Part shown: piece after piece, positions 2 through 57,699 of the stretch
Position numbering within the stretch: position 1 is the first letter of the stretch
Layout: each line of letters begins with the position of its first letter
Origin: an uncultured Acidobacteriota bacterium
Lineage (GTDB): Bacteria > Acidobacteriota > Thermoanaerobaculia > Thermoanaerobaculales > Sulfomarinibacteraceae
DNA length: 64,000 bases
Reading direction: 5' to 3'
NCBI GenBank assembly: GCA_963844845.1
Contig: CAWJPW010000005.1
Span: forward strand, 181,661-245,660
Notes under the pieces: model-generated
The model's input: only the letters and a program-made list of their open reading frames with translations
What the model was told of the DNA's origin: nothing
Database searches by the model: none
Position numbers and translations under genes: made by a program

Positions 2-916
2 ATCCTCATCACCATCTTCCTGGGATGGCAGTACCTGGTAGCTGAACTCATCGGCGGGCTCGTGCTCGTGCTGGTGAGCTGGGTGCTGATGTCGCTCACC
101 GCGCCGGCGGCCTGGCTCGAGACGGCCCGCCAGCGGGCCGAAGCCACCGCGCCCGACGAGCCCGACGACTTCGACTGGCGGGCGCGCATGCGGAGCCGCG
201 AAGGCTGGCGGCTGGTCGGCCGGCAGTTCGTCGCCGAGTGGAAGATGGTCTGGGAGGAGATCGTCATCGGCTTCACCGTGGCCGGGTTTGTCGCCGTGCT
301 GGTCCCGGCCCGCTTCTGGGAGGCCCTGTTCCTCACCGGGATGGGCGATCGCCTGCCCACCTGGGTGGTCGCTCTCGAGAACGCCGTGGTGGCCCCGGTC
401 GTGGCCGCCGCGACCTTTATCGGCTCGATGGGCAACATCCCGCTGGCCACGGTCCTCGCCGGCAGCGGCGTGCTCTTCGCCGGGGTCATCGCATTCGTCT
501 ACTCGGACCTGGTGGTGCCGCCGCTGGTGCGGATCAACGCGCGCTACTACGGCTGGCGCGCCGCGCTCTACATCGTCGCGGTGATGTTCGTCAGCATCGT
601 GATCACGGCGCTGGCCCTGGACCTCGTGTTCAGCCTCCTCGGCGTGGTGCCGGGGGCCCCGCGGCAGGAGATCCAAGACCTCACCCGCTTCGCCTTCGAC
701 TACACCTTCTGGCTGAACCTGCTCTTCGCCGCGCTTGCGAGCATCCTCGTGGTCCTCGCCCGCGCCGGGCGGGCCGAGCACGGTGGGCAGGGGCATCATC
801 ACCATCACAGCGGTGGCGACGGAGGGTGGACCCCGAAGCGCGTTGTGGCGGTGAGCGCCCTGGCGCTGGTCGCCGGTGGCCTGCTGGTCACTCTCGCGAG
901 CGCTCTTCAGGTGTGA
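2..916 (+). CDS. Predicted permease (UPF0718/ArsP-like polytopic membrane protein). 5' partial, continues upstream of the window. His-rich C-terminal tail.
   Basis: The frame is open from base 2 with no stop. It has several hydrophobic spans, family-like segments GSMGNIPLATVL and YSDLVVPPLVRI, and the tail GQGHHHHHSGG. GC3 is high. Confidence 0.65.
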   Translation: MLITIFLGWQYLVAELIGGLVLVLVSWVLMSLTAPAAWLETARQRAEATAPDEPDDFDWRARMRSREGWRLVGRQFVAEWKMVWEEIVIGFTVAGFVAVLVPARFWEALFLTGMGDRLPTWVVALENAVVAPVVAAATFIGSMGNIPLATVLAGSGVLFAGVIAFVYSDLVVPPLVRINARYYGWRAALYIVAVMFVSIVITALALDLVFSLLGVVPGAPRQEIQDLTRFAFDYTFWLNLLFAALASILVVLARAGRAEHGGQGHHHHHSGGDGGWTPKRVVAVSALALVAGGLLVTLASALQV

Positions 917-1002: not shown

Positions 1003-2310
1003 ATGGCCACAGACCTGAGCACGAGGCGAGACCGCGACGCCCTGGTCGGCCTCGACGACGACCGCGACGCCCTCATCGAGGCGTTCACTGCGGTACGCCG
1101 GCAAACCCTCCATCTGGTGCATCCCCTGGCGCCCGAGGACATGGTGCCGCAGGCGATGCCGGACGCGAGCCCCACCAAGTGGCACCTGGCCCATACAAGC
1201 TGGTTCTTCGAGGCCCTGGTCCTCCGCCGGGCAGAGCCGTCGCCGGACTGGTTCGAGCCGGCCTACGCCTACCTCTTCAACTCCTACTACAACAGCCTCG
1301 GCGAGCAGTACCCGCGGCCCCACCGCGGCCTGATCACCCGACCGACGGTGGCCGAGGTGCTGCGCTACCGCGAGCACGTCGACGAGCAGGTCGTGAAGCT
1401 CGCGGGTCGCATCGGAGAGAAGGAGCTGGAGCGGACCATCCCCATCGTTCGGCTCGGTCTGCACCACGAGCAGCAGCACCAGGAGCTCGTCGTCACCGAT
1501 ATCAAAGCACTGCTCGCCCGGAACCCGATGGCCCCCGTCTACCGCCAACGCCCGGCCGGCCCGACGCGACACGGGGTGCCCCCCATCACCTGGCGCTCCT
1601 TCGCCGAGGACGTCTATCCAATTGGCCACCGAGGACCCAGCTTCGCGTACGACAACGAGGGGCCACCGCACCGTGCCCTGGTGCCTGCATTCCAGCTCGC
1701 GGACCGGCTGGTCACCTGTGGCGAGTACCTGGAGTTCATGGCCGACGGCGGCTACGAGCGACCCGAACTGTGGCTCTCCGAGGGATGGGCGACGATCCAC
1801 GACGAGGGATGGAGGGCACCACTCTACTGGGAAAAGCGGGACGGGGAATGGCACCTCTTCACCCTCGCCGGCCGCCGCCGCGTGGACACGGCCGAGGCGA
1901 TGTGCCACGTGAGTCTCTTCGAGGCCGACGCCTTCGCGCGCTGGGCCGGCGCCCGCCTCCCCACCGAGCAGGAGTGGGAAGCGGCCGCGGCCGCCGAGCC
2001 GATGACCGGAAACTTCGTCGAGGACGAGCGCTTCCACCCGACAGCGGCGCCTCCTGGTAACGGCCTCCGCCAGCTCTTCGGCGACCTCTGGGAGTGGACC
2101 AGCAGCGCCTACGCCCCTTACCCCGGCTACAAGCCGGCCGCTGGAGCGGTCGGAGAGTACAACGGCAAGTTCATGTGCAACCAGTATGTGCTACGGGGCG
2201 GCTCGTGCGCGACGCCGGCGGCCCACATCCGGGCGAGCTACCGCAACTTCTGGCCGGCCCGCACCCGTTTCCAGTTCAGCGGGATCCGCCTCGCCCGCGA
2301 CGGCGAGTAG
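1003..2310 (+). CDS. egtB: Ergothioneine biosynthesis sulfoxide synthase EgtB (DinB-like N-terminal domain + FGE-sulfatase C-terminal domain)
   Basis: ATG at 1003 is preceded by AAAGGA. The motifs HLAHTSWFFE, HHEQQHQEL, GDLWEWT and YVLRGGS are typical of EgtB/OvoA-type iron sulfoxide synthases. The track ORF 238-2310 is an N-terminal over-extension. Confidence 0.85.
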   Translation: MATDLSTRRDRDALVGLDDDRDALIEAFTAVRRQTLHLVHPLAPEDMVPQAMPDASPTKWHLAHTSWFFEALVLRRAEPSPDWFEPAYAYLFNSYYNSLGEQYPRPHRGLITRPTVAEVLRYREHVDEQVVKLAGRIGEKELERTIPIVRLGLHHEQQHQELVVTDIKALLARNPMAPVYRQRPAGPTRHGVPPITWRSFAEDVYPIGHRGPSFAYDNEGPPHRALVPAFQLADRLVTCGEYLEFMADGGYERPELWLSEGWATIHDEGWRAPLYWEKRDGEWHLFTLAGRRRVDTAEAMCHVSLFEADAFARWAGARLPTEQEWEAAAAAEPMTGNFVEDERFHPTAAPPGNGLRQLFGDLWEWTSSAYAPYPGYKPAAGAVGEYNGKFMCNQYVLRGGSCATPAAHIRASYRNFWPARTRFQFSGIRLARDGE

Positions 2311-2336: not shown

Positions 2337-3659
2337 TCAGAACATGAGCCAGAGGTTCAGGTAGAGGGTGTCGTTGTCGGACGCACTCCGACCGAAGCCG
2401 TCGTAGTTCGAGCTCGCACCGTTGAACTTCGAGTAGGCGGTGTACTGCGCCGAGAGCTTGACGTTATGCCGCGGCAGGTAGTCCAGCTCGAAGATCACGC
2501 CGGAGCTGTCGGGCGATCCGGTGCGGCTACCGTCCACCGGGCCAGGGGCATAGAGCACCGTGTCCCGGTCGCCTCTGGTGGCGAAGTAGGCCACCGTGCC
2601 GCCGACCTTGAGCTTCCAGAAGTAGCTCCCGCTCACCCTGAACGTGTCGAGGATGTCGGTGGGGTTTCCCGCTCCCCCACGCGCGTACGACGCGTCCCAG
2701 CTCTGACGCTCGTGGATCGCAGTGGTCCTCACGGTCACGGTGTGGGGCCCGCCGGGCTGCCACTGGTACTGCCCGTCCACCGCCAGATCGAGAAAGGAAT
2801 CCGTGGGACCATCGAGCGGAAGACCCCCACCGGGGTAGACCTCCTCTCGGAGGCCGAAGGTCCCCAGCTCGAGATCGCTCTTCCCCCAACCGTGCGACCA
2901 TGCCAGCCGCCAGTAGGGCATGACGCCGTGGATCACGTTCACGTCGTCGCTGCCGGGCGGCTCGTTGTTGCCGATCTGCGAGGAACGGTACAGCGTCGCG
3001 GCGCCGTAGTAGGTGCTCTTGTACCAGAGGTAGCCGCCGAGACCGGCAACCTGCTGGCCCAGCGTGCCGTCGACCTGCGTCGCGGCTGCGGGAGCCGGCG
3101 CGACCCCGGATGCGGCGAAGGGGAAGCCCCAGGCGGGCGTGCTGTTCCACACGTCCTCCACCGTCGGGTTGTTATTCAGGGTGAGGCCGTACAGGAGGTT
3201 GCCGCCTGCGCTGCGGCGCGCGAAGCGGACGTCGGCGTTGTCCATGCTGACGTGATCCTCGACCCCGTCGTAGGTCACCTGGAGGAAGGCCCCGAGGTGA
3301 TCGGCGACACGGCCAGCGAAGAAGAGGCTCATCTGATCCGGGAAGAGGACGTTTCCGTTCTGCGTATCGGGCTGGTTCGCAGCGGTGGAAGTCAACGAGC
3401 TCTGGACCATCACCGCGAGCGGCGCCAGCTGATTAGCCTCGAGCTCGGGTCGGTGGCCGTGCCTCAGCATGGTGTATGCCTCGAGCTTGAAGCTCCGTCC
3501 GTAGGGCGTCAGCTGAGGGAACACCGTGTGGCAGGCATTGCAGGGTAGGCCGGTCTGGCGGGCGAAGCTGGGAACCGCTTCGGCCAGGGGCAGGACGGCG
3601 AGGGCGATGAACGCGAGGGCCACGGCGGTGAATACGGCGACGCGTTGCAGACCGGCCAT
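2337..3659 (-). CDS. Outer-membrane beta-barrel protein with N-terminal single-haem CxxCH motif (Cyc2/Cyt572-like fused porin-cytochrome candidate)
   Basis: ATG at 3659 with a GGAGGA SD upstream. Signal peptide MAGLQRVAVFTAVALAFIALAVLPLAEA is followed by SFARQTGLPCNACHTVFPQLTPYGRSFKLEAYT. About 400 aa of alternating beta-strand-like sequence rich in Y/G/T/N ends in LNLWLMF, a C-terminal aromatic residue typical of OMPs. Confidence 0.7.
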   Translation of the reverse strand: MAGLQRVAVFTAVALAFIALAVLPLAEAVPSFARQTGLPCNACHTVFPQLTPYGRSFKLEAYTMLRHGHRPELEANQLAPLAVMVQSSLTSTAANQPDTQNGNVLFPDQMSLFFAGRVADHLGAFLQVTYDGVEDHVSMDNADVRFARRSAGGNLLYGLTLNNNPTVEDVWNSTPAWGFPFAASGVAPAPAAATQVDGTLGQQVAGLGGYLWYKSTYYGAATLYRSSQIGNNEPPGSDDVNVIHGVMPYWRLAWSHGWGKSDLELGTFGLREEVYPGGGLPLDGPTDSFLDLAVDGQYQWQPGGPHTVTVRTTAIHERQSWDASYARGGAGNPTDILDTFRVSGSYFWKLKVGGTVAYFATRGDRDTVLYAPGPVDGSRTGSPDSSGVIFELDYLPRHNVKLSAQYTAYSKFNGASSNYDGFGRSASDNDTLYLNLWLMF

Positions 3660-3741
3660 CCTCGCTCCTCCCCTGTGGCATTCATCTGAGCCCAACCAGC
3701 CAGGTTGGGGGACCATTCCGAGGCCGGTCATGACCTTCGCG

Positions 3742-4104
3742 TCAGCCGTGCGTGTCCGCCTCGGGCAGCTTGACGACCTCCAGCGCGAGGTCGTGCACCG
3801 CCGCCACCCGAACCCGGTCCCCAGGGCGCAGCGGACTCCCCGCCGCCTCCGCCTGCCAGACCTCACCGTGACAGTGGACCTCGCCGCGCCCGTCCCGCCA
3901 CACCGCCACGATCGCGGTCTCACCCACGAGCCCCCGGTCTCCTGTGCGCACCGGCAGGCGAGAGGATCGCCACATGAGCACGAACCCCACTGCTGCGATC
4001 GCGACCGAGCAGAGATAGCCCACCAGTGCCGCCGGGAACGGCAGCACGACGAATAGAAGGAGGGCCACGAGGGGAAGGGCCATGATAAGCACCATCAGAT
4101 GCAT
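3742..4104 (-). CDS. NfeD-family membrane protein (two TM helices + C-terminal OB-fold)
   Basis: ATG at 4104 with GGAGG 5 nt upstream. Hydrophobic N-terminus, then GETAIVAVWRDGRGEVHCHGEVWQAEA...GDRVRVAAV, typical of the NfeD C-terminal domain. Confidence 0.7.
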   Translation of the reverse strand: MHLMVLIMALPLVALLLFVVLPFPAALVGYLCSVAIAAVGFVLMWRSSRLPVRTGDRGLVGETAIVAVWRDGRGEVHCHGEVWQAEAAGSPLRPGDRVRVAAVHDLALEVVKLPEADTHG

Positions 4105-4156
4105 CGCCGCCTCCTTCCGGAGCCGGGCCACACCCGCGGTATGCCGGTGGACGTCC

Positions 4157-5245
4157 TCATGGCCGTGGCGGATAGGCCTCGAGGTAGAAGTACGCGGCCG
4201 CCACCTCCTCGGGCGTGATGTAGGGCAGGGCGGGCATCTCGGCCCCCCCCATCATGCGCATCATCGGCGCCGAGCCGTCCTCCACCTGCCGTACCACGCT
4301 ACCCAGAGCCTCGTCCGCCGGAAAGCTCGCCAGTGACGGGATGCGCCCCTCCATCATCGCGCGGTGGCCGCCCGGGCCGACGGCGTCGTGACACACGTGG
4401 CAGGTGCCCTTCACAAGGTGCTCCCCCACCCTGGCAGCCGTCTCCCGGACCAGGCGCGGCTCAGCCGTCGGGCCACCTCCCCCCGCAAGACGGCGAAGGT
4501 AGGCCAGCAGGGCGTCGACCTCGTCCCCCCGAAGGTGTGCGAAAGCCGGCATCTTCTGACCACCGGCGCTGAGCCGCTTGCGGATGGTCGCCTCGCCCTG
4601 GGCCGCCAGCTGCGCGGCCATCGCCTTGCTGATGGGATGACCCATCTTCTCCATGCGCGCCGTGATGGCGCTGGCGCTGGCGCCACGCACCGGATCGAGA
4701 AGCGACTTGATCTCCGGGGGTGCGCCCTCGCCGCCCGGCCCGTGGCAGGACTGACAGTTCAACCTGTAGAGATCGCCGCCAGTGACCTCGAACTCCTCGT
4801 TCAGCAGCGTCATCGCACTCTCGCGATCGGAGCGGTAGCGGCCGAGGAATCGGTGCATCACACCATCCACGCCGCTGCCCCCACCCATCATGCCGGGTCC
4901 CATGCCCATCCCGTCGCGGCCGCCGCCCGTCATCCCGCCACTCCGTCCTCCGGACGCTTCGCCAACGGCAGCGCCTTCCCCGAGGCTCGGCTCCGTGCGG
5001 CTACTCGACGGAGGCCGAGCGTCGCCACCCATTTGTCCCATCCGCGTCTGCTCGACCCGCAGATCGAGGTGCTGTAGCCAAGAGGGCCCCTCGACCGCTG
5101 TCACGGTGCCGTCGGCCGGGACCGGCTCCCTCGTTGACGCTCTGGGTGCGCCCGAGCCGCCGGGGTCGGCGCATCCCGCTGCACTCAGCGCGGCCAGGCA
5201 CGAGCCGGCTACTGCCAGTCTCCGGAGACGAGAGTTCCTAGCCAT
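4157..5245 (-). CDS. Dihaem c-type cytochrome, probable lipoprotein, with a Met/Gly-rich insert
   Basis: ATG at 5245. Signal with a lipobox-like LSAAGC. Two CxxCH motifs (CQSCH, CHVCH). Met-rich stretches GGMTGGGRDGMGMGPGMMGGG and PMMRMMGGAEMP. The track ORF 4157-6058 is over-extended. Confidence 0.8.
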   Translation of the reverse strand: MARNSRLRRLAVAGSCLAALSAAGCADPGGSGAPRASTREPVPADGTVTAVEGPSWLQHLDLRVEQTRMGQMGGDARPPSSSRTEPSLGEGAAVGEASGGRSGGMTGGGRDGMGMGPGMMGGGSGVDGVMHRFLGRYRSDRESAMTLLNEEFEVTGGDLYRLNCQSCHGPGGEGAPPEIKSLLDPVRGASASAITARMEKMGHPISKAMAAQLAAQGEATIRKRLSAGGQKMPAFAHLRGDEVDALLAYLRRLAGGGGPTAEPRLVRETAARVGEHLVKGTCHVCHDAVGPGGHRAMMEGRIPSLASFPADEALGSVVRQVEDGSAPMMRMMGGAEMPALPYITPEEVAAAYFYLEAYPPRP

Positions 5246-5271
5246 CCTGCGTCCTTTCGCGTCCCTCTCGA

Positions 5272-5862
5272 CTACTGGAGGGAGACGTTCTTCGTGGTCT
5301 CGCCGCTCACCACCACCCTGGCGCTGCCGTCCACTGTATCGTCCGGGGCCCAGGCCTTGAGGGTGTAGGTGCCGGCTGGGACGCCGCTGATCCGGTAGCG
5401 CCCGTCTGGCCCCGTGACGGCGAAGTAGGGTGTTGGCACCACCGCTATGAACGCCTCCATGTCGGCGTGGAGACTGCACAGAATCGTCGCCCGGCACTCC
5501 TGGTCGAAGGTGTGGCTGCGCGCACCGCCAGGACCCCAGTTGCCGAGGTTGAACGCCCCTGCGCACGGGTCCGGCGAAAAGACGTTGTGGACCACCGTGT
5601 CGTGGTTCTGGAAGGCAACAGTCGTCCCTACCTGAACTGCGAGCATGTGGGGCAGGAAGTGCATGTCCCTCTGATCCAATACCGCTCGCACACCGCTCGC
5701 CTTGGCGTCGATGTTCGGCGCTACCAGCCAGACCGCGGTGTTCGCGGCCGGCACACCCGCTGCGGACTCCACTGTGCCACTCAGCGTGCCGGCAGCCGCC
5801 GGCAACACCACCAGCACGCACAAACCAACGGCTGCTGCTATCCTCGCCACTGCTTGCTTCAT
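5272..5862 (-). CDS. Secreted cupredoxin (type-1 copper, amicyanin/MauL-like) fused to a carboxypeptidase-regulatory-like beta-sandwich
   Basis: ATG at 5862 with a GGGGAGGA SD. Signal peptide present. The copper ligand pattern is intact: HNVFS ... C-S-L-H-A-D-M (Cys-x2-His-x2-Met). The C-terminal GPDGRYRISGVPAGTYTLKAW is typical of the CarboxypepD_reg fold. Confidence 0.75.
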   Translation of the reverse strand: MKQAVARIAAAVGLCVLVVLPAAAGTLSGTVESAAGVPAANTAVWLVAPNIDAKASGVRAVLDQRDMHFLPHMLAVQVGTTVAFQNHDTVVHNVFSPDPCAGAFNLGNWGPGGARSHTFDQECRATILCSLHADMEAFIAVVPTPYFAVTGPDGRYRISGVPAGTYTLKAWAPDDTVDGSARVVVSGETTKNVSLQ

Positions 5863-6066
5863 CCAGTCCTCCCCGGGCCGCCCACCACCGGTCGCTGACA
5901 CGACCCATCCGGGTAACCACTCGAGCGGAACCGCCATTTCTTGGCCGCTGCTGCAGCCCAGGATCGGGACGGGGCGGGAACGCCGACGACCCGCGGCGTG
6001 TTGCCCGAACGAAGAGCTCGCGCGCGAACAGACCACCGAGGAAAGGACGGCATGTCATTCAGAGAC

Positions 6067-6097
6067 TTGACAAATCATCCCTCTGTGGTCATAGAAT
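6067..6097 (+). promoter_or_regulatory. Sigma70-like promoter candidate (TTGACA-N19-TAGAAT) inside the only AT-rich island of the window
   Basis: TTGACA at 6067-6072 and TAGAAT at 6092-6097. The spacer is long (19 nt). It lies in the 494-nt divergent intergenic region between the cupredoxin operon and acs. Confidence 0.35.
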
Positions 6098-6356
6098 CAT
6101 AGAAGCATAAGCTTCTCCCAAGAAGGGGGTCGAGGAGATGGGGTGCGGGGAACTGTGATCCCGCGGCCGCGACGCACGCATCGGGGCGATGCAGGGAGCA
6201 TCGTCACGATGGGGTGTATGCCCAGGGCGTCACCCGCACTCCGGCTCTGAGCTCCTCATTCATCTCATGGACCGTGGAGTCCGGTCGGTCGACGGTGGAG
6301 CGTTCCGTCGTCCACTGGCAGTCTCACGGATCGACGCCGAGAAAGGAGAGCACTTG

Positions 6357-8393
<2,037 letters not shown>

Positions 8394-8416
8394 GTCTCCC
8401 TCGGTTCAGTCGAGCG

Positions 8417-8436
8417 GGGCCGCCTTCGGGCGGCCC
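8417..8436 (+). terminator. GC-rich hairpin after acs (GGGCCGCC-TTCG-GGCGGCCC)
   Basis: Perfect 8-bp stem with a TTCG tetraloop, 24 nt after the acs stop. The following T-tract is weak (CTCTCGCTAT). Confidence 0.4.
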
Positions 8437-8442
8437 TCTCGC

Positions 8443-8448
8443 TATACT
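8443..8448 (+). promoter_or_regulatory. -10-like TATACT box upstream of the acetyltransferase gene
   Basis: TATACT lies 25 nt upstream of the GTG at 8473. The same hexamer precedes rnpB and the AIM24 gene. Confidence 0.3.
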
Positions 8449-8472
8449 GGAGGGCAGCGACAGGAGGCGACA

Positions 8473-10881
8473 GTGTTCAGCATCATCGCCGACGCGAGCG
8501 AGCTGAGAGAGCATGTTCTGCTGCGGAACGGTCAGAGTGTCCTGCTCCGTCTCGCGCAGGAGAAGGACATCCCGGCCCTCGAGGAGCTTCTCGCCCGGGT
8601 TTCGCGGGAGAGCTTGCAGATGCGGTTCATGGCCGGCGTCTCGCAGGTTCCGCGGAAGTTCGTCGAAGCGCTGGTATCGGACGACCTGCGCGATCGCGCC
8701 TGCCTGCTCGCGATCATCGGCGAGGAGCCCCATCACACGGTGGCGGGCTTCGGCAACTACGTGGCGCTGGGAGTGCGCAACACCGCCGAGGTGGCTTTCC
8801 TGGTGGACGACGACTTTCAGGGCCGTGGCGTCAGCACCTTGCTGCTCGAACGCCTGGCGGGCATCGCGGCAGGAGTCGGCATCGTCGCCTTCGAGGCCGA
8901 GGTGCTGTTCGAGAACCAGGCCATGATCAACGTCTTCCGCAGCTCGGGCTTCGAGGCGCGGCAGGCGCTCGAGGGCGGGTCGTTCCACGTGGAGTTCCCG
9001 GTGGGCGGCGCCGCCGCTCTGCGCGAGCGAGGGGAGCTGCGCGAGCGCATCGCAACCGCCAACTCCATCGCCAGGCTCATCAGCCCGCGCACCGTGGCGG
9101 TGGTGGGTGCGTCGCGCCGCGCTTCCAACATCGGGGGTCTGATATTCCGCCACATCCTCGGCGCCGACTTCACGGGGGCCGTGTACCCGGTGAACCACCA
9201 GGCCGAGTCGGTCCAGGGCGTTCACGCCTACCCCTCCCCCGCCGACCTGCCGGAACCGGTGGACGTGGTTGTCGTTGCGGTCCCCGCCGGGCGGGTCCTC
9301 GAAGTGGCGGAGCAGTCTCTCCTGCGCGGCGCCAAGGGCCTCATCGTGGTGACCGCGGGCTTTGCCGAGTCCAGCGAGGAGGGTGCCGCGTTGCAGCGGC
9401 GCCTGCTCGACCTCGTTCGCTCGCACGGCGCCCGACTGGTGGGACCGAACTGCCTCGGCTTGCTCAACACCGACCCCGCAGTGCGCCTCAACGCCAGCCT
9501 CGCCCCCACCATGCCTCCCACCGGGCGCGTGGGCTTCTTCTCCCACTCTGCGGCTCTCGGCATCGTCATCCTCCAGTACGCGGTCGAGCGCGGCCTCGGA
9601 TTCTCCACCTTCGTGTCGGCCGGAAACCGCGCCGACGTGTCAGGCAACGACCTCCTGCAGTACTGGGAAGAGGACCCCTCCACCGACCTCGCCATGCTCT
9701 ACCTCGAGACGTTCGGCAACCCGAGAAGGTTCTCGCGCGTCGCGCGGCGGGTTTCTGCGCGCAAGCCGGTGCTCTGCGTCAAGAGCGCTCGGAGCCGCGC
9801 CGGCCGCAGCGTGGCCCAGGCGCACATCGGCGCGGCACCGGTGGCCGAGCAGGAGGTCGAGACGCTGTTCCGCCAGGCCGGCGTCATCCGCGTCGACACC
9901 CTCGAGGAGCTTTTCGACGTGGCCACTTTGCTCGCCCACCAGCCGCTGCCGGCGGGCAACCGCGTGGCAATCGTCGGCAACTCCGGGGGCGTCGTGACCA
10001 TCACGGCCGATGCCTGCGAGGCATACGGTCTCTCGGTCACGCACTCGGGGCGACAACGTCTTGGCACTCTCGCCGGGCCCGAACCTTTCCAGGCGGCGGT
10101 GCGCGCCGACCTGGAGGACTCCGACGTCGACGCCCTCATCGTCATCTACCTGTGCATCGGCGATTGCGACCCCGAGGTGGTCAGCCGTGCCATCCGCCGC
10201 GGGGTCGTCACTGCCGAGCGGCATACGGGCGTGAGCAAGCCGGTCCTGCTCTGCCTCATGGGGGCTGCCGGCACGGTCCAGGTGCCGGTGGCAGGCCGTT
10301 CGCGGGGCAACCGCGACGCGGTGTTCCCCTCGTATCGCTTCCCCGAGTCCGCAGTGCGGGCCCTCGCGCACGTGGTGGAGTATGCCGAGTACCGTCGCCA
10401 GCCGCCTGGGCGACTTCTGTGGTACGAGGACACGGACGCGGGGGCAGCCCGCGCTCAGGTCGAGGAGATCCTGTCGCCGCTTCGGGGGACGGCTCCTGCG
10501 AAGGTCTCGGGGGATACCGCCAGAGCCCTCCTGGATGCCTTCGGGATTTCGGTGGATGAGGCGGCCAAGGCACCCCGAAAGCTCTCCCTCGCGGTGCGCT
10601 CGGACCCCGACTTCGGCCCGCTGCTCGTTCTCCGACGGGGATCGGCCCGCCTCCAGCGCCTCACGCCCCTCACCAGCCGTGACCTGCGTGAGCTCACCGC
10701 GAAGATGGATCTCCCGCCCGATGGGAGCGAGGCAGAGCTGCTGGGCCGCCTGTCCCAGCTGGTGGAGGAGCTTCCCTGGCTCACCGAGCTCACGGGCACG
10801 CTCATCCCGGCGGAGCACGCGGCGGGAGGAAGGGCGGCGCTTGAACCAGACGTGCGAATGGTGTTCAGCCGGGAACCGTAG
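8473..10881 (+). CDS. Protein lysine acetyltransferase, Pat-like with reversed domain order (N-terminal GNAT + C-terminal NDP-forming acyl-CoA synthetase-like region)
   Basis: GTG at 8473 with GGAGG 5 nt upstream. GNAT core FLVDDDFQGRGVSTLLLERL. Then the CoA-binding and succinyl-CoA-ligase-like segments PRTVAVVGASRR, GLIVVTAGFAE and LVGPNCLGLLN. Confidence 0.8.
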   Translation: MFSIIADASELREHVLLRNGQSVLLRLAQEKDIPALEELLARVSRESLQMRFMAGVSQVPRKFVEALVSDDLRDRACLLAIIGEEPHHTVAGFGNYVALGVRNTAEVAFLVDDDFQGRGVSTLLLERLAGIAAGVGIVAFEAEVLFENQAMINVFRSSGFEARQALEGGSFHVEFPVGGAAALRERGELRERIATANSIARLISPRTVAVVGASRRASNIGGLIFRHILGADFTGAVYPVNHQAESVQGVHAYPSPADLPEPVDVVVVAVPAGRVLEVAEQSLLRGAKGLIVVTAGFAESSEEGAALQRRLLDLVRSHGARLVGPNCLGLLNTDPAVRLNASLAPTMPPTGRVGFFSHSAALGIVILQYAVERGLGFSTFVSAGNRADVSGNDLLQYWEEDPSTDLAMLYLETFGNPRRFSRVARRVSARKPVLCVKSARSRAGRSVAQAHIGAAPVAEQEVETLFRQAGVIRVDTLEELFDVATLLAHQPLPAGNRVAIVGNSGGVVTITADACEAYGLSVTHSGRQRLGTLAGPEPFQAAVRADLEDSDVDALIVIYLCIGDCDPEVVSRAIRRGVVTAERHTGVSKPVLLCLMGAAGTVQVPVAGRSRGNRDAVFPSYRFPESAVRALAHVVEYAEYRRQPPGRLLWYEDTDAGAARAQVEEILSPLRGTAPAKVSGDTARALLDAFGISVDEAAKAPRKLSLAVRSDPDFGPLLVLRRGSARLQRLTPLTSRDLRELTAKMDLPPDGSEAELLGRLSQLVEELPWLTELTGTLIPAEHAAGGRAALEPDVRMVFSREP

Positions 10882-10924
10882 ACGTTTCACCGCACACGGC
10901 TGAATCCGGTTCCGGAGGTCACTC

Positions 10925-11554
10925 ATGCTGGTACGCGACATCATGACCAGCCCCGCACTCACCGTCGGGGGCGAGAGCACGCTCGAGGGAGCGTGCCACA
11001 TCATGCACGAGCACAACATCAGACACCTGCCGGTGCTCGAGGATGGGCGTCTGGTGGGCATCATCACCGACCGTGATCTTGGAGGGTCCTCCTCGTCGTT
11101 CTGCGTGGCCCCGGCGGCGCCGCGAGGACTGGTACGGGAGGCCATGACCCAGCCCGTCCGTACCGCGAGCGCGGATGACCCCGTGGAGGATGCTGCCCGC
11201 GTCATGCGCGAACTCAAGATCGGCTGCCTTCCGGTGGTGGAGGACGAGCGCCTCGTGGGCATCGTCACCGGCATCGACCTCCTCGACGCCCTGCTCCGCC
11301 TCACCGGCGTGCATCGCCCCGGGGGCCGCCTGGAGATCCGCCTGCAGGATCGCCCCGGTGAGCTCGGGCGGCTCATGACCCTGTTCGGTGAACGCCGCGT
11401 GAACACGCACTCGGTCCTCACCCACCCGGAGGAGGGCGGGGCGGTGAGGGTTGTGCTGCGGGTCGGCACGTTGGAGACCCGGCCCCTGGCCAACACCCTG
11501 CGCGAGATGGGCTTCGAGGTGGTGTGGCCGCCGGAGAAGCCATGGCAGGAGTGA
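10925..11554 (+). CDS. CBS-pair + ACT domain protein (AcuB-like)
   Basis: Two CBS repeats (VRDIMTSPALTV ... HLPVLEDGRLVGIITDRDL; MTQPVRTASADD ... CLPVVEDERLVGIVTGIDLL), then an ACT-like C-terminus. SD GGAGG upstream. Confidence 0.8.
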   Translation: MLVRDIMTSPALTVGGESTLEGACHIMHEHNIRHLPVLEDGRLVGIITDRDLGGSSSSFCVAPAAPRGLVREAMTQPVRTASADDPVEDAARVMRELKIGCLPVVEDERLVGIVTGIDLLDALLRLTGVHRPGGRLEIRLQDRPGELGRLMTLFGERRVNTHSVLTHPEEGGAVRVVLRVGTLETRPLANTLREMGFEVVWPPEKPWQE

Positions 11555-12675
11555 TCTTCAACCCAGGCTACGCAGCCTACGACTTCGGAGCGGAGCACCC
11601 GTTCTCCCCTGCCCGCGTGGCCATGACGCTCGATCTCCTGGACGCGCTCGACCACCCTGTGACCTGGACCACCGCGCCGACTGCGACCCGCGATGAGATC
11701 CTCACCGTCCATGAAGAGCCCTACGTCCGTGCGGTGGAGGCCCTGAGCAGCGACCAGTCCGCCATCGACGGCTCGTCCTTCGGCCTCGACACCGCCGACA
11801 CACCGTGGTTCCCCGGCATGGACGAAGCCGGGCGCTGCGTGGTCGGCGGCACGCTCGAGGCGGCGCGCCGCATCGCCGACGGGCGCGAGACCTGCGTCCT
11901 CCAACTGGGCGGTGGGCTCCACCATGCCCATCCCGGATGGGCCTCGGGCTTTTGCGTCTACAACGACCTGGCGGTGGCCATCCGCCACCTCGTGGACAGC
12001 GGGCTGTTCGTCGCCTACCTGGACATCGACGTGCATCACGGCGACGGCGTGCAGGACGCCTTCTACCGGGACGAGCACGTGCTGACCATCAGCCTGCACG
12101 AGTCCGGGCAGTACCTTTACCCCGGGTCCGGCGAGATCTACGAGCTCGGCGAGGGTATGGGCCGAGGGCTCGCCGTCAACATGCCGCTCGAGCCCTTCAC
12201 CGAGGACGACGGCTATCTGGAGGTCTTCGACGCGGTTGTTCCGCAGGCGCTGCAGTGGTTCGGCCCCCAGGTTCTCGTGGTCCAGGCGGGCGCTGACGGG
12301 CACTTCGCGGACCCTCTCGCCGATCTTGCGTTGACGACCCGTGGGTACGAGGCGCTTCACCGGCGCATCCTGGCACTGGCTGAGCGCTTTACCCAGGGGC
12401 GGCTCCTGCTGACCCTCGGCGGCGGCTACACCTTCCACGCGGTGACCCGGGTGTGGACGATTCTCTACCTGGTGCTTCATGGGCTTCCGGTTCCTGAGGA
12501 GATCCCCGAGGCCTGGTCGAGGAAGTGGGCGCCTCGCCTGAAGGGGCGCGTCCCGCGGACTTTGCACGACGCGCCTAACCCGTTCGAGCCGATCCCCCGG
12601 CGCCCCGAGATCACCAAGCGGAATCGCGACGTCTCCACCAGGCTGCTCGACTCCCTTGCGCGCTACTGGTTCTAG
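11542..12675 (+). CDS. acuC: Histone-deacetylase-family protein deacetylase (acetoin utilisation protein AcuC-like)
   Basis: ATG at 11542 overlaps the stop of the CBS gene. Class I HDAC motifs are present: GGGLHHA, DIDVHHGDGVQ, LGGGGY. An alternative in-frame start lies at 11524. Confidence 0.85.
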   Translation: MAGVIFNPGYAAYDFGAEHPFSPARVAMTLDLLDALDHPVTWTTAPTATRDEILTVHEEPYVRAVEALSSDQSAIDGSSFGLDTADTPWFPGMDEAGRCVVGGTLEAARRIADGRETCVLQLGGGLHHAHPGWASGFCVYNDLAVAIRHLVDSGLFVAYLDIDVHHGDGVQDAFYRDEHVLTISLHESGQYLYPGSGEIYELGEGMGRGLAVNMPLEPFTEDDGYLEVFDAVVPQALQWFGPQVLVVQAGADGHFADPLADLALTTRGYEALHRRILALAERFTQGRLLLTLGGGYTFHAVTRVWTILYLVLHGLPVPEEIPEAWSRKWAPRLKGRVPRTLHDAPNPFEPIPRRPEITKRNRDVSTRLLDSLARYWF

Positions 12676-18504: not shown

Positions 18505-20190
18505 ATGGTCAACGAGCCAACCAAGGTGATCTACTCGATGAGCGGGGTGAGCCGCTTCCACGGTACCCGGCAGGTCCTCAAGGACATCTCGTTGGGGTAC
18601 TTCTACGGAGCCAAGATCGGCGTGATCGGCCTCAATGGCGCCGGCAAGAGCTCGCTGCTCAGGATCATGGCAGGGGTCGACCAGGACTTCCAGGGTGAGG
18701 TCGTATGTGCACCCGGCTACTCGGTGGGCTTCCTGCCGCAGGAGCCGCAGCTGGATCCCGAGGCCAGCGTCCTCGACATCGTCAAGGAGGGTGCGCGCGA
18801 GGCGGTCGACCTCCTCGCCGAGTTCGACACCATCGGCGAGCGCTTCGCCGAGCCCATGAACGACCAGGAAATGAACGCGCTGCTCGAGCGTCAGGGCGAG
18901 GTGCAGGCGCGCATCGACGCGCTCGGCGCGTGGGATCTCGACAGCCGCCTCGAGCTCGCCATGGACGCACTCCGTTGCCCGCCCCCCAAGACCCCGATTC
19001 GCGTGCTGTCGGGGGGTGAGGTGCGGCGGGTGGCGCTGTGCCGCCTGCTTCTGCTGCAACCCGACATCCTCCTCCTCGACGAGCCCACCAACCACCTCGA
19101 TGCCGAGTCGGTGGCCTGGCTGGAGCGCCACCTCAAGGGCTACCAGGGCACCGTCATCGCCGTGACCCACGACCGCTACTTCCTCGATAACGTCGCCGGC
19201 TGGATTCTCGAGCTCGACCGCGGCCACGGCATCCCGTGGAAGGGCAACTACTCGTCCTGGTTGGAGCAGAAGCAGGATCGGTTGCGGCGCGAGCAGAAGG
19301 CCGAGAGCCAGAGGCAGAAGACCCTCGAGCGCGAGCTGGAGTGGGTCCGGATGTCACCCCGTGGCCGGCATGACAAGAGCAAGGCCCGGGTCAAGAGCTA
19401 CCAGGCTCTACTCGCCCAGGAGAGCGACCGTCTCGCCCGCGAGCTGGAGATCTACATCCCGCCCGGCCCCCGTCTCGGCGACGTAGTCATCGAGGCGCAG
19501 GGGGTACGCAAGGCGTTCGGCGACCGCCTCCTGGTGGACGACATGACCTTCACCATTCCACCGGGTGCCGTGGTGGGCGTGGTTGGGCCCAACGGCGCCG
19601 GCAAGACGACGCTGTTCCAGATGATCACCGGGCAGGAGACGCCCGACGCCGGCCTTCTCCGGCTCGGCGACACGGTGGAGCTTGCCTACGTGGACCAGAG
19701 CCGAAGCACCCTCGACCCTGACCGCACGGTCTGGGAGGTCATCTCCGAGGGCAGTGAGTCGGTTCGCCTGGGCCGTGCCGAGGTGAGCTCGCGCGCCTAC
19801 GTAGGCCGCTTCAACTTCTCGGGCGCCGACCAGCAGAAGCGCGTGGCCGATCTCTCGGGCGGCGAGCGCAACCGCGTTCATCTCGCCCGGATGCTCAAGC
19901 AGGGCGCCAACGTGCTTCTTCTCGACGAGCCCACCAACGACCTCGACGTGAACACCCTGCGCGCCCTCGAGGAGGCGATCCTCGCCTTCGCCGGCAGCGT
20001 GGTGGTCATCAGCCACGACCGCTGGTTCCTCGACCGCGTGGCCACCCACGTCCTCGCCTTCGAGGGCGACAGCCGTGTGCTTTTCTTCGATGGCATGTAC
20101 TCGGAGTACGAGGCCGATCGCAGGGCGCGCCTGGGCGCCGCCGCGGAGAGGCCGCACCGTATCACCTACCGTTCCCTGACCCGGACCTGA
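18505..20190 (+). CDS. ettA: Energy-dependent translational throttle protein EttA (ABC-F ATPase)
   Basis: Two ABC cassettes (GLNGAGKSS, LSGGEVRR, LLLDEPTNHLD; GPNGAGKTT, LSGGERNR, LLLDEPTNDLD), 561 aa, with an EttA-like N-terminus. Confidence 0.92.
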   Translation: MVNEPTKVIYSMSGVSRFHGTRQVLKDISLGYFYGAKIGVIGLNGAGKSSLLRIMAGVDQDFQGEVVCAPGYSVGFLPQEPQLDPEASVLDIVKEGAREAVDLLAEFDTIGERFAEPMNDQEMNALLERQGEVQARIDALGAWDLDSRLELAMDALRCPPPKTPIRVLSGGEVRRVALCRLLLLQPDILLLDEPTNHLDAESVAWLERHLKGYQGTVIAVTHDRYFLDNVAGWILELDRGHGIPWKGNYSSWLEQKQDRLRREQKAESQRQKTLERELEWVRMSPRGRHDKSKARVKSYQALLAQESDRLARELEIYIPPGPRLGDVVIEAQGVRKAFGDRLLVDDMTFTIPPGAVVGVVGPNGAGKTTLFQMITGQETPDAGLLRLGDTVELAYVDQSRSTLDPDRTVWEVISEGSESVRLGRAEVSSRAYVGRFNFSGADQQKRVADLSGGERNRVHLARMLKQGANVLLLDEPTNDLDVNTLRALEEAILAFAGSVVVISHDRWFLDRVATHVLAFEGDSRVLFFDGMYSEYEADRRARLGAAAERPHRITYRSLTRT

Positions 20191-20239
20191 CCGGTCCGTG
20201 CCACGACACACCGCGGTGTGGACCGCGGGGAGGTATGAC

Positions 20240-20698
20240 ATGCGCCACCTGACAACGTCCGTGATCGTCGTCCTCGTCGTCGCCACAGCGCTCGCCGGCG
20301 GGCGCTCGGCGGGCGCCCAGACCACTACGCCTGCCGCGACCACCCCCACCGCGACCGCCCAACGGGAAACGCCTCACGAGATACCCGGCCAGTGGCTCCG
20401 TGACGTCCAGAAGCGGCGTGACGAGATCGCCACGCGCCACGAGGCCATGATGGTCCGTCTCGACGCGCTCTCCAAGACGATGAACCAGGCCACCGGGCAG
20501 GCCAAGATCGACGCCATGGCCGCCCTCCTCAACGAGCTCGTGGCACAGCAGAAAGCGACGCTTGAGAAAGCCGGGGCGCAGACCACGGGCCGCTTCGAGC
20601 CGGCGCGCCGGCGGCGGGTGCCGCCGGGCGCCCGCAACCGAGTCGCGCCAGCCTCGCAACCGACGCCGCCTCCGGACGGCAAGAACCCAACTCCTTGA
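20240..20698 (+). CDS. Secreted alpha-helical hypothetical protein
   Basis: ATG at 20240. Signal peptide MRHLTTSVIVVLVVATALAGGRSAGA, followed by helical sequence and a Pro/Arg-rich tail. Confidence 0.5.
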   Translation: MRHLTTSVIVVLVVATALAGGRSAGAQTTTPAATTPTATAQRETPHEIPGQWLRDVQKRRDEIATRHEAMMVRLDALSKTMNQATGQAKIDAMAALLNELVAQQKATLEKAGAQTTGRFEPARRRRVPPGARNRVAPASQPTPPPDGKNPTP

Positions 20699-20747
20699 GC
20701 CGTAAAGGCACAGCGATCGCAATGGCTGGCGTCACAGGGAGGATCCC

Positions 20748-21245
20748 GTGCTCGAGCTGCTGAGGATCTCTTCGCTTCCCAACCTCCACCCGGCGGTGGT
20801 CCACTTCCCACTCGCCCTGGCGCCGGCCGCCTTCCTCTTCGACCTGATCGCCATCGCCGTGAGGCGCCGGCTCTGGCTCGATCGCACCGGAACCGCGTTG
20901 TGGGTGATGGCCGGGCTCGGGGCGCTGGCCGCCTACCTGGCCGGGCTCAACGCCGAGGATCACGTCGCCGGCAGTCTCGCGCCCCGTGCCGAGGCGGTGA
21001 TGTACGACCATCGTGACTGGGCCCTGCGAGCACTCATCATCATGGGTGCGGCGGTGTTCCTCCGCCTCCTCGTGGCCTGGCGGGAGCGCGGACGCGGCCA
21101 CGTCGCCGTCACGCCCCTCCGCGCCGTTGCACTGCTGGCCGGCGCCCTCACCCTGGTGCTGCTCGTGGTCACAGCCGACCACGGCGGCAGTCTCGTGTAC
21201 CACTGGGGCGCAGCGGTGACCCCGGTCTCCACGAGTGGTGGTTGA
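20748..21245 (+). CDS. DUF2231-like integral membrane protein
   Basis: GTG at 20748 with a GGGAGG SD. NLHPAVVHFPLAL motif, four TM spans, and DHGGSLVYHWG near the C-terminus. Confidence 0.65.
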   Translation: MLELLRISSLPNLHPAVVHFPLALAPAAFLFDLIAIAVRRRLWLDRTGTALWVMAGLGALAAYLAGLNAEDHVAGSLAPRAEAVMYDHRDWALRALIIMGAAVFLRLLVAWRERGRGHVAVTPLRAVALLAGALTLVLLVVTADHGGSLVYHWGAAVTPVSTSGG

Positions 21246-21488
21246 GTGGTTGGCCGAGAGCGGCCGGCACCACGCTGCACAGAACCGGCACGTGGAAACT
21301 AACCCTAGCTCAGACCTCAGGTTGCGCCAACGGGAGCGTTCGGCTAGCCTGAACTGTGGGCCCCCGGTCGCGGAGGCCCCGAATTGGGGGGGAGATGAAG
21401 CGCATCGACGGCGGCCGCCGGTTGTGCCGGTCGCGCACGGCCCCGACGAGCCGTGAGCCCTTTGTCCAGCCTCGTGGGTCGGGCTGCG

Positions 21489-22622
21489 ATGAGTGACCCG
21501 CGGCGCCACGCCGGCCTCCGACAGCTGGTGGAGCGTACCTGGGAGCGCAATCTTCTCTTCTCCGTGCTCGTCGAGCTTACCTATCGCTGTAACCTCGACT
21601 GCTTCTTCTGCTACAACGACGTCGGCCTCGGCGGTACCCCCCTCACCACCGACCAGTGGCTCGCCTTCTTCCGCGACCTCGCCGCGATGCAGGTCCTCAA
21701 CCTCACCCTGAGCGGCGGCGAACCTCTCGCCCATCCCGAGTTCTTCCGCCTCGGCAGCACCGCCCGTGACCTGGGCTTCGCCGTGCGTATCAAGACCAAC
21801 GGGCACGCGATCACCCGGTCCGTGGCGCGCCGCCTCAAGGACGAGGTCGACCCGTTCAACCTCGACGTCAGCCTCCACGGCGCCAGCGCCGCCACCCACG
21901 ACCGCCAGACTCGCGTACCCGGCAGCTTCACCCGGCTCCTGGCCAACCTCCAGATCATGCGCGCCGAAGGCCTGCGCGTACGCGCCAACTGCACGCTGAC
22001 GCGCTGGAACGAGGATGAGCTGGAGGCGCTCTTCGCCCTCGCCGACCGGCTCGGCCTCACCCTCACGGTGTCCCCCCAGGTTTCGCCCCGCGACGACGGC
22101 GACCGCGCGCCGCTGGGGATTGCACCATCGCCGGCGGGCATAGCGACGCTGTACCGCCTGCTGGCGGAGCAACGTCGTGTCCGGGTCGCCGACGAGGATC
22201 CCGCCCCGCAGGCGGCGTGCAGCGGCGAGCACCTGCCGTCCCTCACCACCAAGAACTGCGGCGCGGGCTCCGGCGGCGTGGCCGTGGATCCCATGGGCAA
22301 CGTGCTTCCCTGCGTGCAGTGGCGTCGGCCGGTGGGGAACCTACACGAACGCTCCATCAAGGAGATCTGGGCCGACTCGCCGCGCCTCGCTGAGGTCCGC
22401 GGGGTGACGGCCGCTGCGCGGGAGCACCGCGACCGCCTGGCAGCTGCACGCAGCCAGCCCACCCTGTTCTGCCCTGCTCTGGCCGAGACGCTCACCGGAC
22501 ATCCCCTCGGCGTCTACCCCGAGGTCGCACCTGAAGCGGGAGGTCGGTTCCCGGCAAGCGACGGCTCGGTTCTCCCGATGCTACCCGACCACGCCTCAAT
22601 ACCGTTCCTGCCCGAAGTGTGA
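21489..22622 (+). CDS. Radical SAM enzyme with truncated SPASM/twitch-like C-terminal domain (putative peptide maturase)
   Basis: CNLDCFFC (CxxxCxxC) cluster motif and a SGGEPL SAM-binding motif. The C-terminal NCGAGSGGVAVDPMGNVLPC ... FCP provides only 3 auxiliary Cys. The start is either ATG 21489 or GTG 21453. Confidence 0.8.
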   Translation: MSDPRRHAGLRQLVERTWERNLLFSVLVELTYRCNLDCFFCYNDVGLGGTPLTTDQWLAFFRDLAAMQVLNLTLSGGEPLAHPEFFRLGSTARDLGFAVRIKTNGHAITRSVARRLKDEVDPFNLDVSLHGASAATHDRQTRVPGSFTRLLANLQIMRAEGLRVRANCTLTRWNEDELEALFALADRLGLTLTVSPQVSPRDDGDRAPLGIAPSPAGIATLYRLLAEQRRVRVADEDPAPQAACSGEHLPSLTTKNCGAGSGGVAVDPMGNVLPCVQWRRPVGNLHERSIKEIWADSPRLAEVRGVTAAAREHRDRLAAARSQPTLFCPALAETLTGHPLGVYPEVAPEAGGRFPASDGSVLPMLPDHASIPFLPEV

Positions 22623-36712: not shown

Positions 36713-36718
36713 TAGAAT
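36713..36718 (+). promoter_or_regulatory. -10 box TAGAAT upstream of the BNR exoprotein gene
   Basis: GGCTAGAAT resembles the boxes at 13753 and 57735. It lies 61 nt upstream of GTG 36780. Confidence 0.35.
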
Positions 36719-36779
36719 GCCGACTTCAAACCAACCCCTCGGCTGGCCCTCTGCACGGCTCGCCGACCCGGAGGCAGCT

Positions 36780-45827: not shown

Positions 45828-45983
45828 GCTCGCTGCCGACCCAAGCGCTCCTTCACCCGAGTCTCATCCCGGGCCGCTGTGGTCTCAGCTCAATGACAAC
45901 GAGTGACAGGCCTCGCGATCGCGGTGTACCATGCGTGTACTTCGCCCCTCGGGGCATTCATCTCGACTTTCGGAGGAGATCCC

Positions 45984-56878: not shown

Positions 56879-56884
56879 CCAACT

Positions 56885-56890
56885 TCTATA
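56885..56890 (-). promoter_or_regulatory. -10-like TATAGA box 6 nt before ATG 56878 (leaderless-type geometry)
   Basis: The minus strand reads TATAGA-agttgg-ATG, with no SD. Confidence 0.35.
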
Positions 56891-57675: not shown

Positions 57676-57699
57676 GAGCACCTCCGAGATCGCGGCCGG

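Follow-up and report, generated by a model that had tools for sequence, protein, structure and literature searches.

A minus-strand operon from a Sulfomarinibacteraceae bacterium that probably encodes a Cyc2-type electron conduit with a cupredoxin and a tethered dihaem cytochrome c

We analysed a stretch of 64,000 nucleotides (nt), referred to here as the window, from an uncultured Acidobacteriota bacterium of the family Sulfomarinibacteraceae (GenBank assembly GCA_963844845.1, contig CAWJPW010000005.1, positions 181,661 to 245,660 of the forward strand). Near its left end, the window contains four adjoining genes, g1 to g4, that code for a cupredoxin, a dihaem cytochrome c, an NfeD protein and a porin-cytochrome of the Cyc2 family. 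The explanation that we favour, and consider probable, is that this locus encodes a Cyc2-type conduit through which Fe(II), or another soluble donor, would be oxidised at the cell surface and the electrons passed to the periplasm. A preliminary description of the locus, made from the sequence alone, had reported four co-directional genes with gaps of 26-82 nt, and this was borne out by the coordinates, which place all four genes on the minus strand with intergenic gaps of 26, 52 and 82 nt. In the order of reading, the genes are the following.

5272-5862, minus strand: g1, cupredoxin, 196 amino acids (aa)
4157-5245, minus strand: g2, dihaem cytochrome c, 362 aa
3742-4104, minus strand: g3, NfeD, 120 aa
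2337-3659, minus strand: g4, Cyc2-family porin-cytochrome, 440 aa

The family assignment of g4 carries most of the argument. Keffer et al. (2021; PMC8406198) defined Cyc2 by a signal peptide, one CXXCH, the motif AXPXFAR[Q/K][T/Y] upstream of it, PXL four residues downstream, a minimum length of 365 aa and a 16-strand porin body modelled on OprP/OprO, and they called the upstream motif unique to Cyc2. At 440 aa, g4 is longer than that minimum. Its first 28 residues (MAGLQRVAVFTAVALAFIALAVLPLAEA, followed by VPSF) have the hydrophobic core and A-x-A site of a signal peptide, as judged by inspection only, and a similar layout is seen in the 120 best homologues. There is a single CNACH (residues 40-44, nt 3528-3542), which begins at position 12 of the predicted mature protein. 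Upstream of this haem site, A28-V-P-S-F-A-R-Q-T36 fits AXPXFAR[Q/K][T/Y], and downstream of it, H44-T-V-F-P48-Q-L50 fits PXL. The published wording puts the motif 'five amino acids upstream' (PMC8406198), whereas g4 has only three residues separating the two. The C-terminus is LWLMF, with Phe as the last residue. The length, signal peptide, haem motif near the mature N-terminus and terminal Phe had all been noted in the preliminary description and were found as reported.

3510-3578, minus strand: cytochrome motif of g4, A28-L50 (AVPSFARQTGLPCNACHTVFPQL), the published Cyc2 motif
2343-3419, minus strand: barrel of g4, residues 81-439, from the AlphaFold2 model

Neither Pfam nor NCBIfam gave a match to g4, and a sequence-profile search of the PDB returned chance-level matches only. 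Homologues are nevertheless abundant: more than 6,400 proteins were found at E <= 1e-3, carrying the names 'hypothetical protein' or 'cytochrome C' where they were named, and an exhaustive search yielded 3,258 clusters at 50% identity, 460 of these at E <= 1e-30. The preliminary description had made its case dependent on conservation of the haem motif in orthologues, and of the 120 best homologues all but one, a truncated sequence, have CxxCH. The 120 sequences have in common the N-terminal block AVPSFARQTGxxCxxCHTVFPxLTxFGRxFKLxGYT; the strict upstream motif with the spacing of g4 occurs in 86 of them and a relaxed form in 98, and the C-terminal residue is aromatic in 118. In an alignment of 66 sequences, R34, Q35, C40, C43, H44, L50, G54, R55, F57 and K58 are invariant or nearly so; C40, C43, H44 and L50 are strictly invariant, and P48 almost is.

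The AlphaFold2 model built from these 66 sequences (mean predicted local distance difference test score, pLDDT, 86.7; predicted template modelling score, pTM, 0.83) shows exactly 16 strands between residues 81 and 439, a confident prediction of the beta-barrel that the preliminary description had anticipated. When the model was compared with the PDB by Foldseek, the matches were OmpT, OmpF, OmpC, OprP (2o4v) and OprO (4rjw), at E values of 1e-8 to 1e-10, with 16-strand porins as the best; OprP and OprO are the templates used for Cyc2 in the literature. Met84, located on the first strand and unchanged throughout the alignment, is a candidate for the distal haem ligand. Because all of the published features that can be checked in a sequence are present, we place g4 in the Cyc2 family, and from these features it appears as a clear member, that is, a predicted fusion of a monohaem cytochrome with a 16-strand outer-membrane porin. 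The description of g4 as a Cyc2/Cyt572-like fusion was thus well chosen, given that the published Cyc2 motif (PMC8406198) is present. These features of g4 are shared with the family as represented by Acidithiobacillus ferrooxidans Cyc2, Mariprofundus ferrooxydans Cyc2PV-1 and Leptospirillum Cyt572 (Keffer et al. 2021, McAllister et al. 2020), whose members are likewise ~440 aa long and often adjoin a periplasmic cytochrome c; one difference is that the host of g4, a high-GC bacterium, is not a known iron oxidiser. As an aside on nomenclature, A. ferrooxidans Cyc2 and Leptospirillum Cyt572 are assigned to Clusters 2 and 3, respectively, in the main text of PMC8406198 and to Clusters 3 and 2 in the identity table of its Figure S7.

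The first gene of the row, g1, matched the Pfam families Copper-bind (3.3e-5) and CarboxypepD_reg (3.8e-9), the cupredoxin part extending over approximately residues 58-141 and a CarboxypepD_reg-like beta-sandwich lying at the C-terminus. The four presumptive copper ligands, H92 (in HNV), C129, H132 and M135, the last three in the arrangement C-x2-H-x2-M, are invariant in 58 homologues. Their codons are located as follows.

5587-5589, minus strand: H92 of g1, Cu-ligand codon
5476-5478, minus strand: C129 of g1, Cu-ligand codon
5467-5469, minus strand: H132 of g1, Cu-ligand codon
5458-5460, minus strand: M135 of g1, Cu-ligand codon

The AlphaFold2 model of g1 (pLDDT 91.5) was most similar in Foldseek to the cupredoxin 5fc9, amicyanin and plastocyanin, with TM-scores, normalised to target length, of 0.73-0.81 against amicyanin and plastocyanin. 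The sequence-profile matches in the PDB were to the C-terminal cupredoxin domains of copper nitrite reductases (NirK), a Nitrosopumilus cupredoxin, amicyanin and plastocyanin. Rusticyanin was absent both from the best 60 of 63 sequence matches at E <= 1 and from the Foldseek top 50. Sequence and model together indicate that g1 is a secreted type-1 copper protein of the amicyanin/plastocyanin kind with a CarboxypepD_reg-like domain; the preliminary description had recognised the secreted cupredoxin and its intact ligand set, and the additional domain is new here. With amicyanin and plastocyanin, g1 shares the fold, the His-Cys-His-Met set and the amicyanin-like C-x2-H-x2-M spacing, and it differs from them in being fused to the CarboxypepD_reg-like domain and in adjoining a Cyc2-type gene at every locus inspected (9/9; see below). 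Since the GTLSGTV strands that follow the signal peptide resemble the start of CarboxypepD_reg, the cupredoxin may even be inserted in that domain, as suggested by the sequence and the coordinates of the Pfam profiles. The g1 family is small, with ~425 matches, and those that are named come from Acidobacteriota, including Ca. Sulfotelmatobacter, which hints at an Acidobacteriota affiliation of the host.

The product of g2 matched Cytochrome_CBB3 (4.1e-13) and Cytochrom_C (1.1e-12) of Pfam, each in two stretches. It begins with a signal peptide and a lipobox (LSAAG-C25), which is followed by a tether of ~110 residues that contains Met-Gly motifs (GGMTGGGRDGMGMGPGMMGGG); the tether is conserved as GGMMG repeats in the homologue encoded at locus L092 (7641-8783), one of the related loci considered below.

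4840-5170, minus strand: Gly/Met-rich low-complexity tether of g2, approximately residues 26-135, which contains GGMTGGGRDGMGMGPGMMGGG
4742-4756, minus strand: haem 1 of g2, CXXCH motif CQSCH, residues 164-168
4388-4402, minus strand: haem 2 of g2, CXXCH motif CHVCH, residues 282-286

The two haem motifs are paired with downstream methionines (CQSCH with KMPAF, CHVCH with EMPALP), and from the usual MP motif we infer these as the distal ligands of both haems. On a short contig of identical sequence, the automatic annotation places the start of g2 at an internal Met, giving a protein of 258 aa; we favour the 362-aa form because it has the signal peptide and because the L092 homologue has 380 aa. 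The lipobox at C25 and the two CXXCH motifs agree with the earlier description of g2 as a lipoprotein-like dihaem cytochrome c, and g2 is, on its predicted features, a lipoprotein-type dihaem class-I cytochrome c carried on a flexible tether. It could be speculated that such a long tether lets a membrane-anchored carrier reach across the periplasm. The nearest PDB relatives in sequence are actinobacterial dihaem QcrC proteins (best 1.8e-6), and A. ferrooxidans Cyc1 (1H1O) was not matched at E <= 1. We also considered whether g2 is an orthologue of c4/Cyc1, given that single-linkage clustering grouped it with c4-type neighbours of other Cyc2 genes, and rejected this, as direct comparison revealed similarity at the haem motif only. 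Elsewhere in the window there is a second, membrane-anchored dihaem cytochrome c (56920-57681, minus strand; CTGCH and CFSCH), which stands in a row with genes for a transglutaminase-like and TPR lipoprotein (55784-56902, minus strand) and a 290-aa protein without a Pfam match (54573-55445, minus strand).

The evidence that these proteins belong together comes from related loci, of which we compared 80 from species-representative genomes and further ones obtained through exact-protein look-ups. All nine of the g1-family loci examined (the window, L070, L076, L081 and L092-L096) have a Cyc2-type gene within ~1.7 kb, and the Cyc2-type genes concerned belong to two subclades that are 23-28% identical to each other. 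L092 has a g1 homologue (54% identity), then a g2 homologue (70%) whose Gly/Met-rich tether is like that of g2, and after it a 484-aa Cyc2-type protein, with no NfeD; this protein carries AIPAFARRY...CQTCH...PKL and is only 23% identical to g4. At L089, a C-terminal g2 fragment of 78% identity lies directly upstream of a Cyc2 that is 65-66% identical, again with no NfeD between them. At L093-L096, a divergent Cyc2-type gene comes first and a g1-type cupredoxin second. After these come a GltD-like flavoprotein of ~620 aa, of the NAD(P)-binding Fe-S kind, a Rieske protein, a cytochrome b in split form and, at the end, two cytochromes c, a multihaem one of ~670 aa and a small one. A similarity search found the same neighbours at L070, and the Cyc2-type genes of L093-L096 and L070 are of the xFSRKY/FARKY motif type.

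L093 5589-13706; L094 5582-13891; L095 1-7021; L096 3452-10612; L070 8001-13011: Cyc2-cupredoxin-GltD-Rieske/cytochrome b cluster

The GltD-containing cluster is reminiscent of those Rieske/cytochrome b complexes of anammox bacteria that include an NAD(P) oxidoreductase, and might couple electron uptake at the surface to NAD(P)+ reduction. In our view, the strongest evidence that the proteins work together is that the cupredoxin is retained at the same place beside Cyc2 genes of different subclades. As the linkage of g1 to Cyc2 holds in 9/9 loci and across two subclades, and the order g1-g2-Cyc2 recurs once, the g1-g2-Cyc2 partnership looks functional from the gene neighbourhoods.

A tblastn-based census of neighbours covered 91 non-redundant Cyc2 loci of the wider g4 subfamily. 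The commonest neighbour is a c4-like dihaem cytochrome, found immediately downstream in 33/91 loci; a Rieske gene lies within 5 kb in 14/91 and a cytochrome b gene within 5 kb in 12/91, and there is a g1-type cupredoxin in 7/91, a GltD-like flavoprotein in 5/91 and a g2-type cytochrome in 4/91. The scan of species-representative genomes contained no Cyc2 closer to g4 than 51% identity. Ten proteins of the window were looked up in the protein collection, and the seven that it contained were all singletons at 90% identity; for the EttA of the window, the best named relatives are 73-76% identical and come from Thermoanaerobaculales, Blastocatellia, Nitrospirota and Chloroflexota alike.

Could the four genes be chance neighbours, with g4 a porin that has an incidental CxxCH? 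Such a reading can point to the NfeD gene, which is unique to the window locus, and to the unrelated housekeeping type of the genes on either side (an EgtB-like gene and an acetyl-CoA synthetase gene). Against it, the CxxCH and its flanking motif are conserved across thousands of homologues, the linkage of g1 to Cyc2 is seen with two divergent subclades, that of g2 to Cyc2 recurs, and all four genes are on a single strand with short gaps. Conservation and synteny effectively refute this explanation, to which we give next to no credence, and we rejected the ordinary-porin reading of g4 since the haem site and flanking motif are both conserved.

The composition of the operon invites comparison with the rus operon of A. 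ferrooxidans, which has the order cyc2-cyc1-cup-coxBACD-rus and thus contains an aa3 oxidase. In both operons, an outer-membrane Cyc2, a dihaem cytochrome c and a blue-copper protein are encoded together, as the preliminary description had pointed out, and that part of the comparison stands. The rest does not. The gene for Cyc2 is first in rus and last in the window, where the order is cupredoxin, dihaem cytochrome, NfeD, Cyc2; the window operon has no cox genes and no linked oxidase, and has NfeD inserted; and the partners are not orthologous, g1 being amicyanin/plastocyanin-like with an extra beta-sandwich rather than a rusticyanin, and g2 a tethered lipoprotein with no match to Cyc1 (1H1O). 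To judge from the sequences, the likeness between the two operons is therefore one of analogy, not of orthology. The locus also resembles the Cyc2-Cyc1 pathway proposed for Zetaproteobacteria and Gallionellaceae, in which Cyc2 and a periplasmic c-type cytochrome lead towards an oxidase; it differs from this neutrophilic pathway in having a longer and different dihaem protein as well as a cupredoxin, and no cbb3 oxidase or alternative complex III is within reach. With MtoAB, PioAB and MtrCAB, g4 has in common an outer-membrane barrel that carries haem-borne electrons across the membrane, but those systems use separate decahaem cytochromes in 26-strand barrels, whereas in g4 one haem is fused to a 16-strand barrel.

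We propose that electrons would take the following path. Dissolved Fe(II), or another soluble one-electron donor, would be oxidised at the cell-surface haem of Cyc2. The electron would then pass to the periplasmic cupredoxin g1, to the tethered dihaem cytochrome g2 or to both, and from there to an inner-membrane acceptor encoded outside the window, which might be a terminal oxidase or, as in the relatives, a Rieske/cytochrome b complex. We infer the substrate Fe(II), the direction of electron flow and the inner-membrane acceptor by analogy with characterised family members. Fe(II) oxidase activity has been shown for A. ferrooxidans Cyc2, Cyt572, Cyc2PV-1 and a Nitrospirota Cyc2, and each Cyc2 cluster has one representative with this activity; covalent attachment of haem and a place in the outer membrane have likewise been demonstrated for members of the family.

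Several observations weigh against a conduit of this kind. The authors who defined Cyc2 warned that its function is unverified outside the clades of known iron oxidisers, and largely so in Clusters 2 and 3. Most hosts of the closest homologues (Gemmatimonadales, Steroidobacteraceae, Acidobacteriota, Bacteroidota and Binatia metagenome-assembled genomes) are not known iron oxidisers. The 64-kb window has no terminal oxidase, nor does it have a bc complex or genes for carbon fixation. Finally, the four closest readable Cyc2 relatives, at 59-69% identity to g4, are followed by a different set of genes without a cupredoxin. Cyc2 stands at the head of their operon; next come a membrane-anchored cytochrome c (~260 aa) whose N-terminal domain is Big_7-like and a membrane protein of 160 aa that belongs to no family, and after these Rieske and cytochrome b.

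L003 8001-12531; L086 6593-11302; L088 843-5122; L090 486-5087: operon of the closest g4 relatives

The idea in the preliminary description that orthologous loci might keep the cupredoxin and dihaem partners accordingly holds in one part, as both recur at L092 and g2 recurs at L089, and fails in another, as the closest relatives of g4 lack the cupredoxin.

These points bear on two alternatives that leave the protein assignments as they are and change what the proteins do. One is that the same hardware serves another purpose, namely the exchange of electrons with a partner other than Fe(II), be it reduced humics, Mn or a different soluble metal, a solid or an electrode, or else the outward disposal of electrons. 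The authors defining Cyc2 themselves allowed for further functions; Ca. Tenderia electrophaga, which oxidises electrodes, also has a Cyc2 homologue; the electron-transfer machinery of A. ferrooxidans has been described as reversible; and the hosts of close g4 homologues belong mostly to heterotroph-like lineages. On the other side, every Cyc2 tested so far oxidises Fe(II), and we found no case of the family having been characterised with another function, an outcome that the preliminary description had named as damaging to its proposal. One haem in a narrow 16-strand barrel has been argued to suit dissolved Fe2+ and not solids, and a type-1 copper protein with a class-I cytochrome c are typical high-potential carriers, which fits an inward flow towards an oxidase. 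We regard this alternative as a serious minority option, with perhaps one chance in several of being correct.

The other alternative is a metal-stress or homeostasis module, which would detoxify Fe(II) or Cu(I), in the periplasm or at the surface, through oxidation or by other means. The Met-Gly motifs of the g2 tether look similar to the Met-rich segments with which periplasmic proteins of copper resistance bind Cu(I), and they may be Cu(I)-binding themselves. Genes of the OEP/CusB-CzcB/RND efflux type come next after two of the closest Cyc2 loci, L086 and L089, and the window has a CDF gene for cation efflux as well as an ArsP-type permease whose tail is His-rich; the efflux genes in the window do not, however, adjoin the operon. 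Moreover, the relatives tie the same cupredoxin and Cyc2 to respiratory Rieske/cytochrome b complexes. Detoxification is consequently an improbable role in our estimation, well behind the other uses just mentioned, and a Cyc2-type conduit for a soluble donor remains the explanation that we prefer.

The third gene seems to have no place in such a conduit. The match of g3 to the Pfam family NfeD (PF01957) is unambiguous (4.6e-12; 46.4 bits against a cut-off of 29.1), and the protein is predicted to have two transmembrane helices at its N-terminus, followed at the C-terminus by a partner-binding domain of the OB-fold, which by the positive-inside rule probably faces the cytoplasm. NfeD genes are usually paired with SPFH genes. 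In the NfeD (STOPP)-SPFH/stomatin operons, a C-terminal NfeD OB-fold stands behind transmembrane helices, as it does in g3, but g3 lacks an SPFH neighbour and sits inside a cytochrome operon. No SPFH/Band 7 partner adjoins g3 or occurs among the 34 open reading frames (ORFs) of the window that were scanned with Pfam, in agreement with the preliminary description of a short NfeD without such a partner. An NfeD gene was also missing from all other Cyc2 and g1 loci examined, the single case among the 91 Cyc2 loci being the window itself. Because it is absent from every related locus, we read g3 as a lineage-specific insertion that is co-transcribed and lies outside the conduit, and it probably plays no part in electron transfer.

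The gene calls on which these assignments rest appear sound. The window is uniformly GC-rich (~0.63-0.71), and many long ORFs overlap on its two strands; a wrong strand or frame for g1-g4 was rejected because none of the overlapping ORFs on the plus strand is supported by a domain, and because GC content at third codon positions in the minus-strand frames is high (0.80-0.85), as expected of coding sequence. A ribosome-binding site of the GGAGG/AAGGA type lies a few bases before each of the four start codons, and the gene calls on an identical short metagenomic contig agree with g1-g4. A consensus scan detected no convincing terminator inside the operon and no sigma-70 site, and a search of the operon and its upstream region for Rfam families and repeats gave nothing convincing, with no Rfam match. 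As a component of the explanation that we favour, and held with the same fairly strong confidence, the spacing and orientation of g1-g4 suggest that they form one transcription unit. Its putative promoter is presumed to lie in the region between g1 and the divergent acetyl-CoA synthetase gene.

5863-6188, no strand assigned: divergent intergenic region between g1 and the acetyl-CoA synthetase gene, 326 nt, read from the sequence

The sole AT-rich island of this region is at about 6051-6110 and contains, at 6089-6104 on the minus strand, the tandem TTCTATGA TTCTATGA, a candidate that could be a binding site for a regulator of the operon. At the other end, the EgtB-like gene converges on g4, with 26 nt between the stop codons.

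The remaining genes of interest in the window are given below.

62-916, plus strand: ArsP_1-type permease with His-rich tail, which precedes the EgtB-like gene
1003-2310, plus strand: EgtB-like gene (DinB_2 and FGE-sulfatase, ergothioneine-synthesis type)
6189-12675, plus strand, divergent from the operon: acetyl-CoA synthetase, a protein with GNAT and CoA-ligase-like parts (Pat-like acetyltransferase), a CBS and ACT protein, and a histone-deacetylase-family protein
20180-22622, plus strand: small secreted protein, DUF2231 membrane protein and radical-SAM/SPASM enzyme in a row
36717-41237 and 45903-49826, plus strand: very large, repeat-rich secreted or cell-surface proteins of 1,506 and 1,307 aa

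The run of four genes at 6189-12675 looks like an AcuABC-style acetylation switch for Acs, and the genes at 20180-22622 are possibly a peptide-maturation set.

What, then, does the locus add to the knowledge of Cyc2? Homologues of Cyc2 have been reported across many phyla, and they are used routinely in metagenomics as a marker for iron oxidation. The presence of g4 is in itself unsurprising, as tools such as FeGenie were built to flag such homologues. The part that has not been described is the set of partners, g1 and g2, around a known kind of Cyc2, and the partnership of the cupredoxin with Cyc2 is the lead most worth following. Our searches of the literature, which left most subscription journals outside and are therefore weak evidence, turned up no description of a pairing of this cupredoxin family with Cyc2, of a cupredoxin ahead of GltD-Rieske/cytochrome b clusters, or of an NfeD inside a Cyc2-type operon. 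One tentative hypothesis, which we consider possible although the odds are against it, is that the g1-type cupredoxin, with or without g2, is a dedicated and previously undescribed periplasmic relay for Cyc2-type porin-cytochromes in Acidobacteriota-like bacteria of soil and sediment, where it would take the part of rusticyanin and Cyc1 without being orthologous to them. Recombination seems to have brought the relay together with two or more Cyc2 subclades, and as part of the same tentative hypothesis it may, in the relatives, feed a Rieske/cytochrome b complex with a GltD-like flavoprotein and a multihaem cytochrome.

No genetic marker of microbial iron oxidation is used more widely than Cyc2, the function of which is unproven beyond a few cultured clades. 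A cupredoxin beside Cyc2 would offer a possible second and independent marker, which could raise confidence that a working electron-transfer chain is present, and g1 and g2 offer soluble proteins with measurable redox potentials, which are relevant to the use of Fe(II) at neutral pH. If the relay hypothesis is true, it would suggest that respiration driven by Fe(II) is widespread in lineages that have been seen as ordinary heterotrophs, and perhaps that Fe(II) drives NAD(P)+ reduction there as well.

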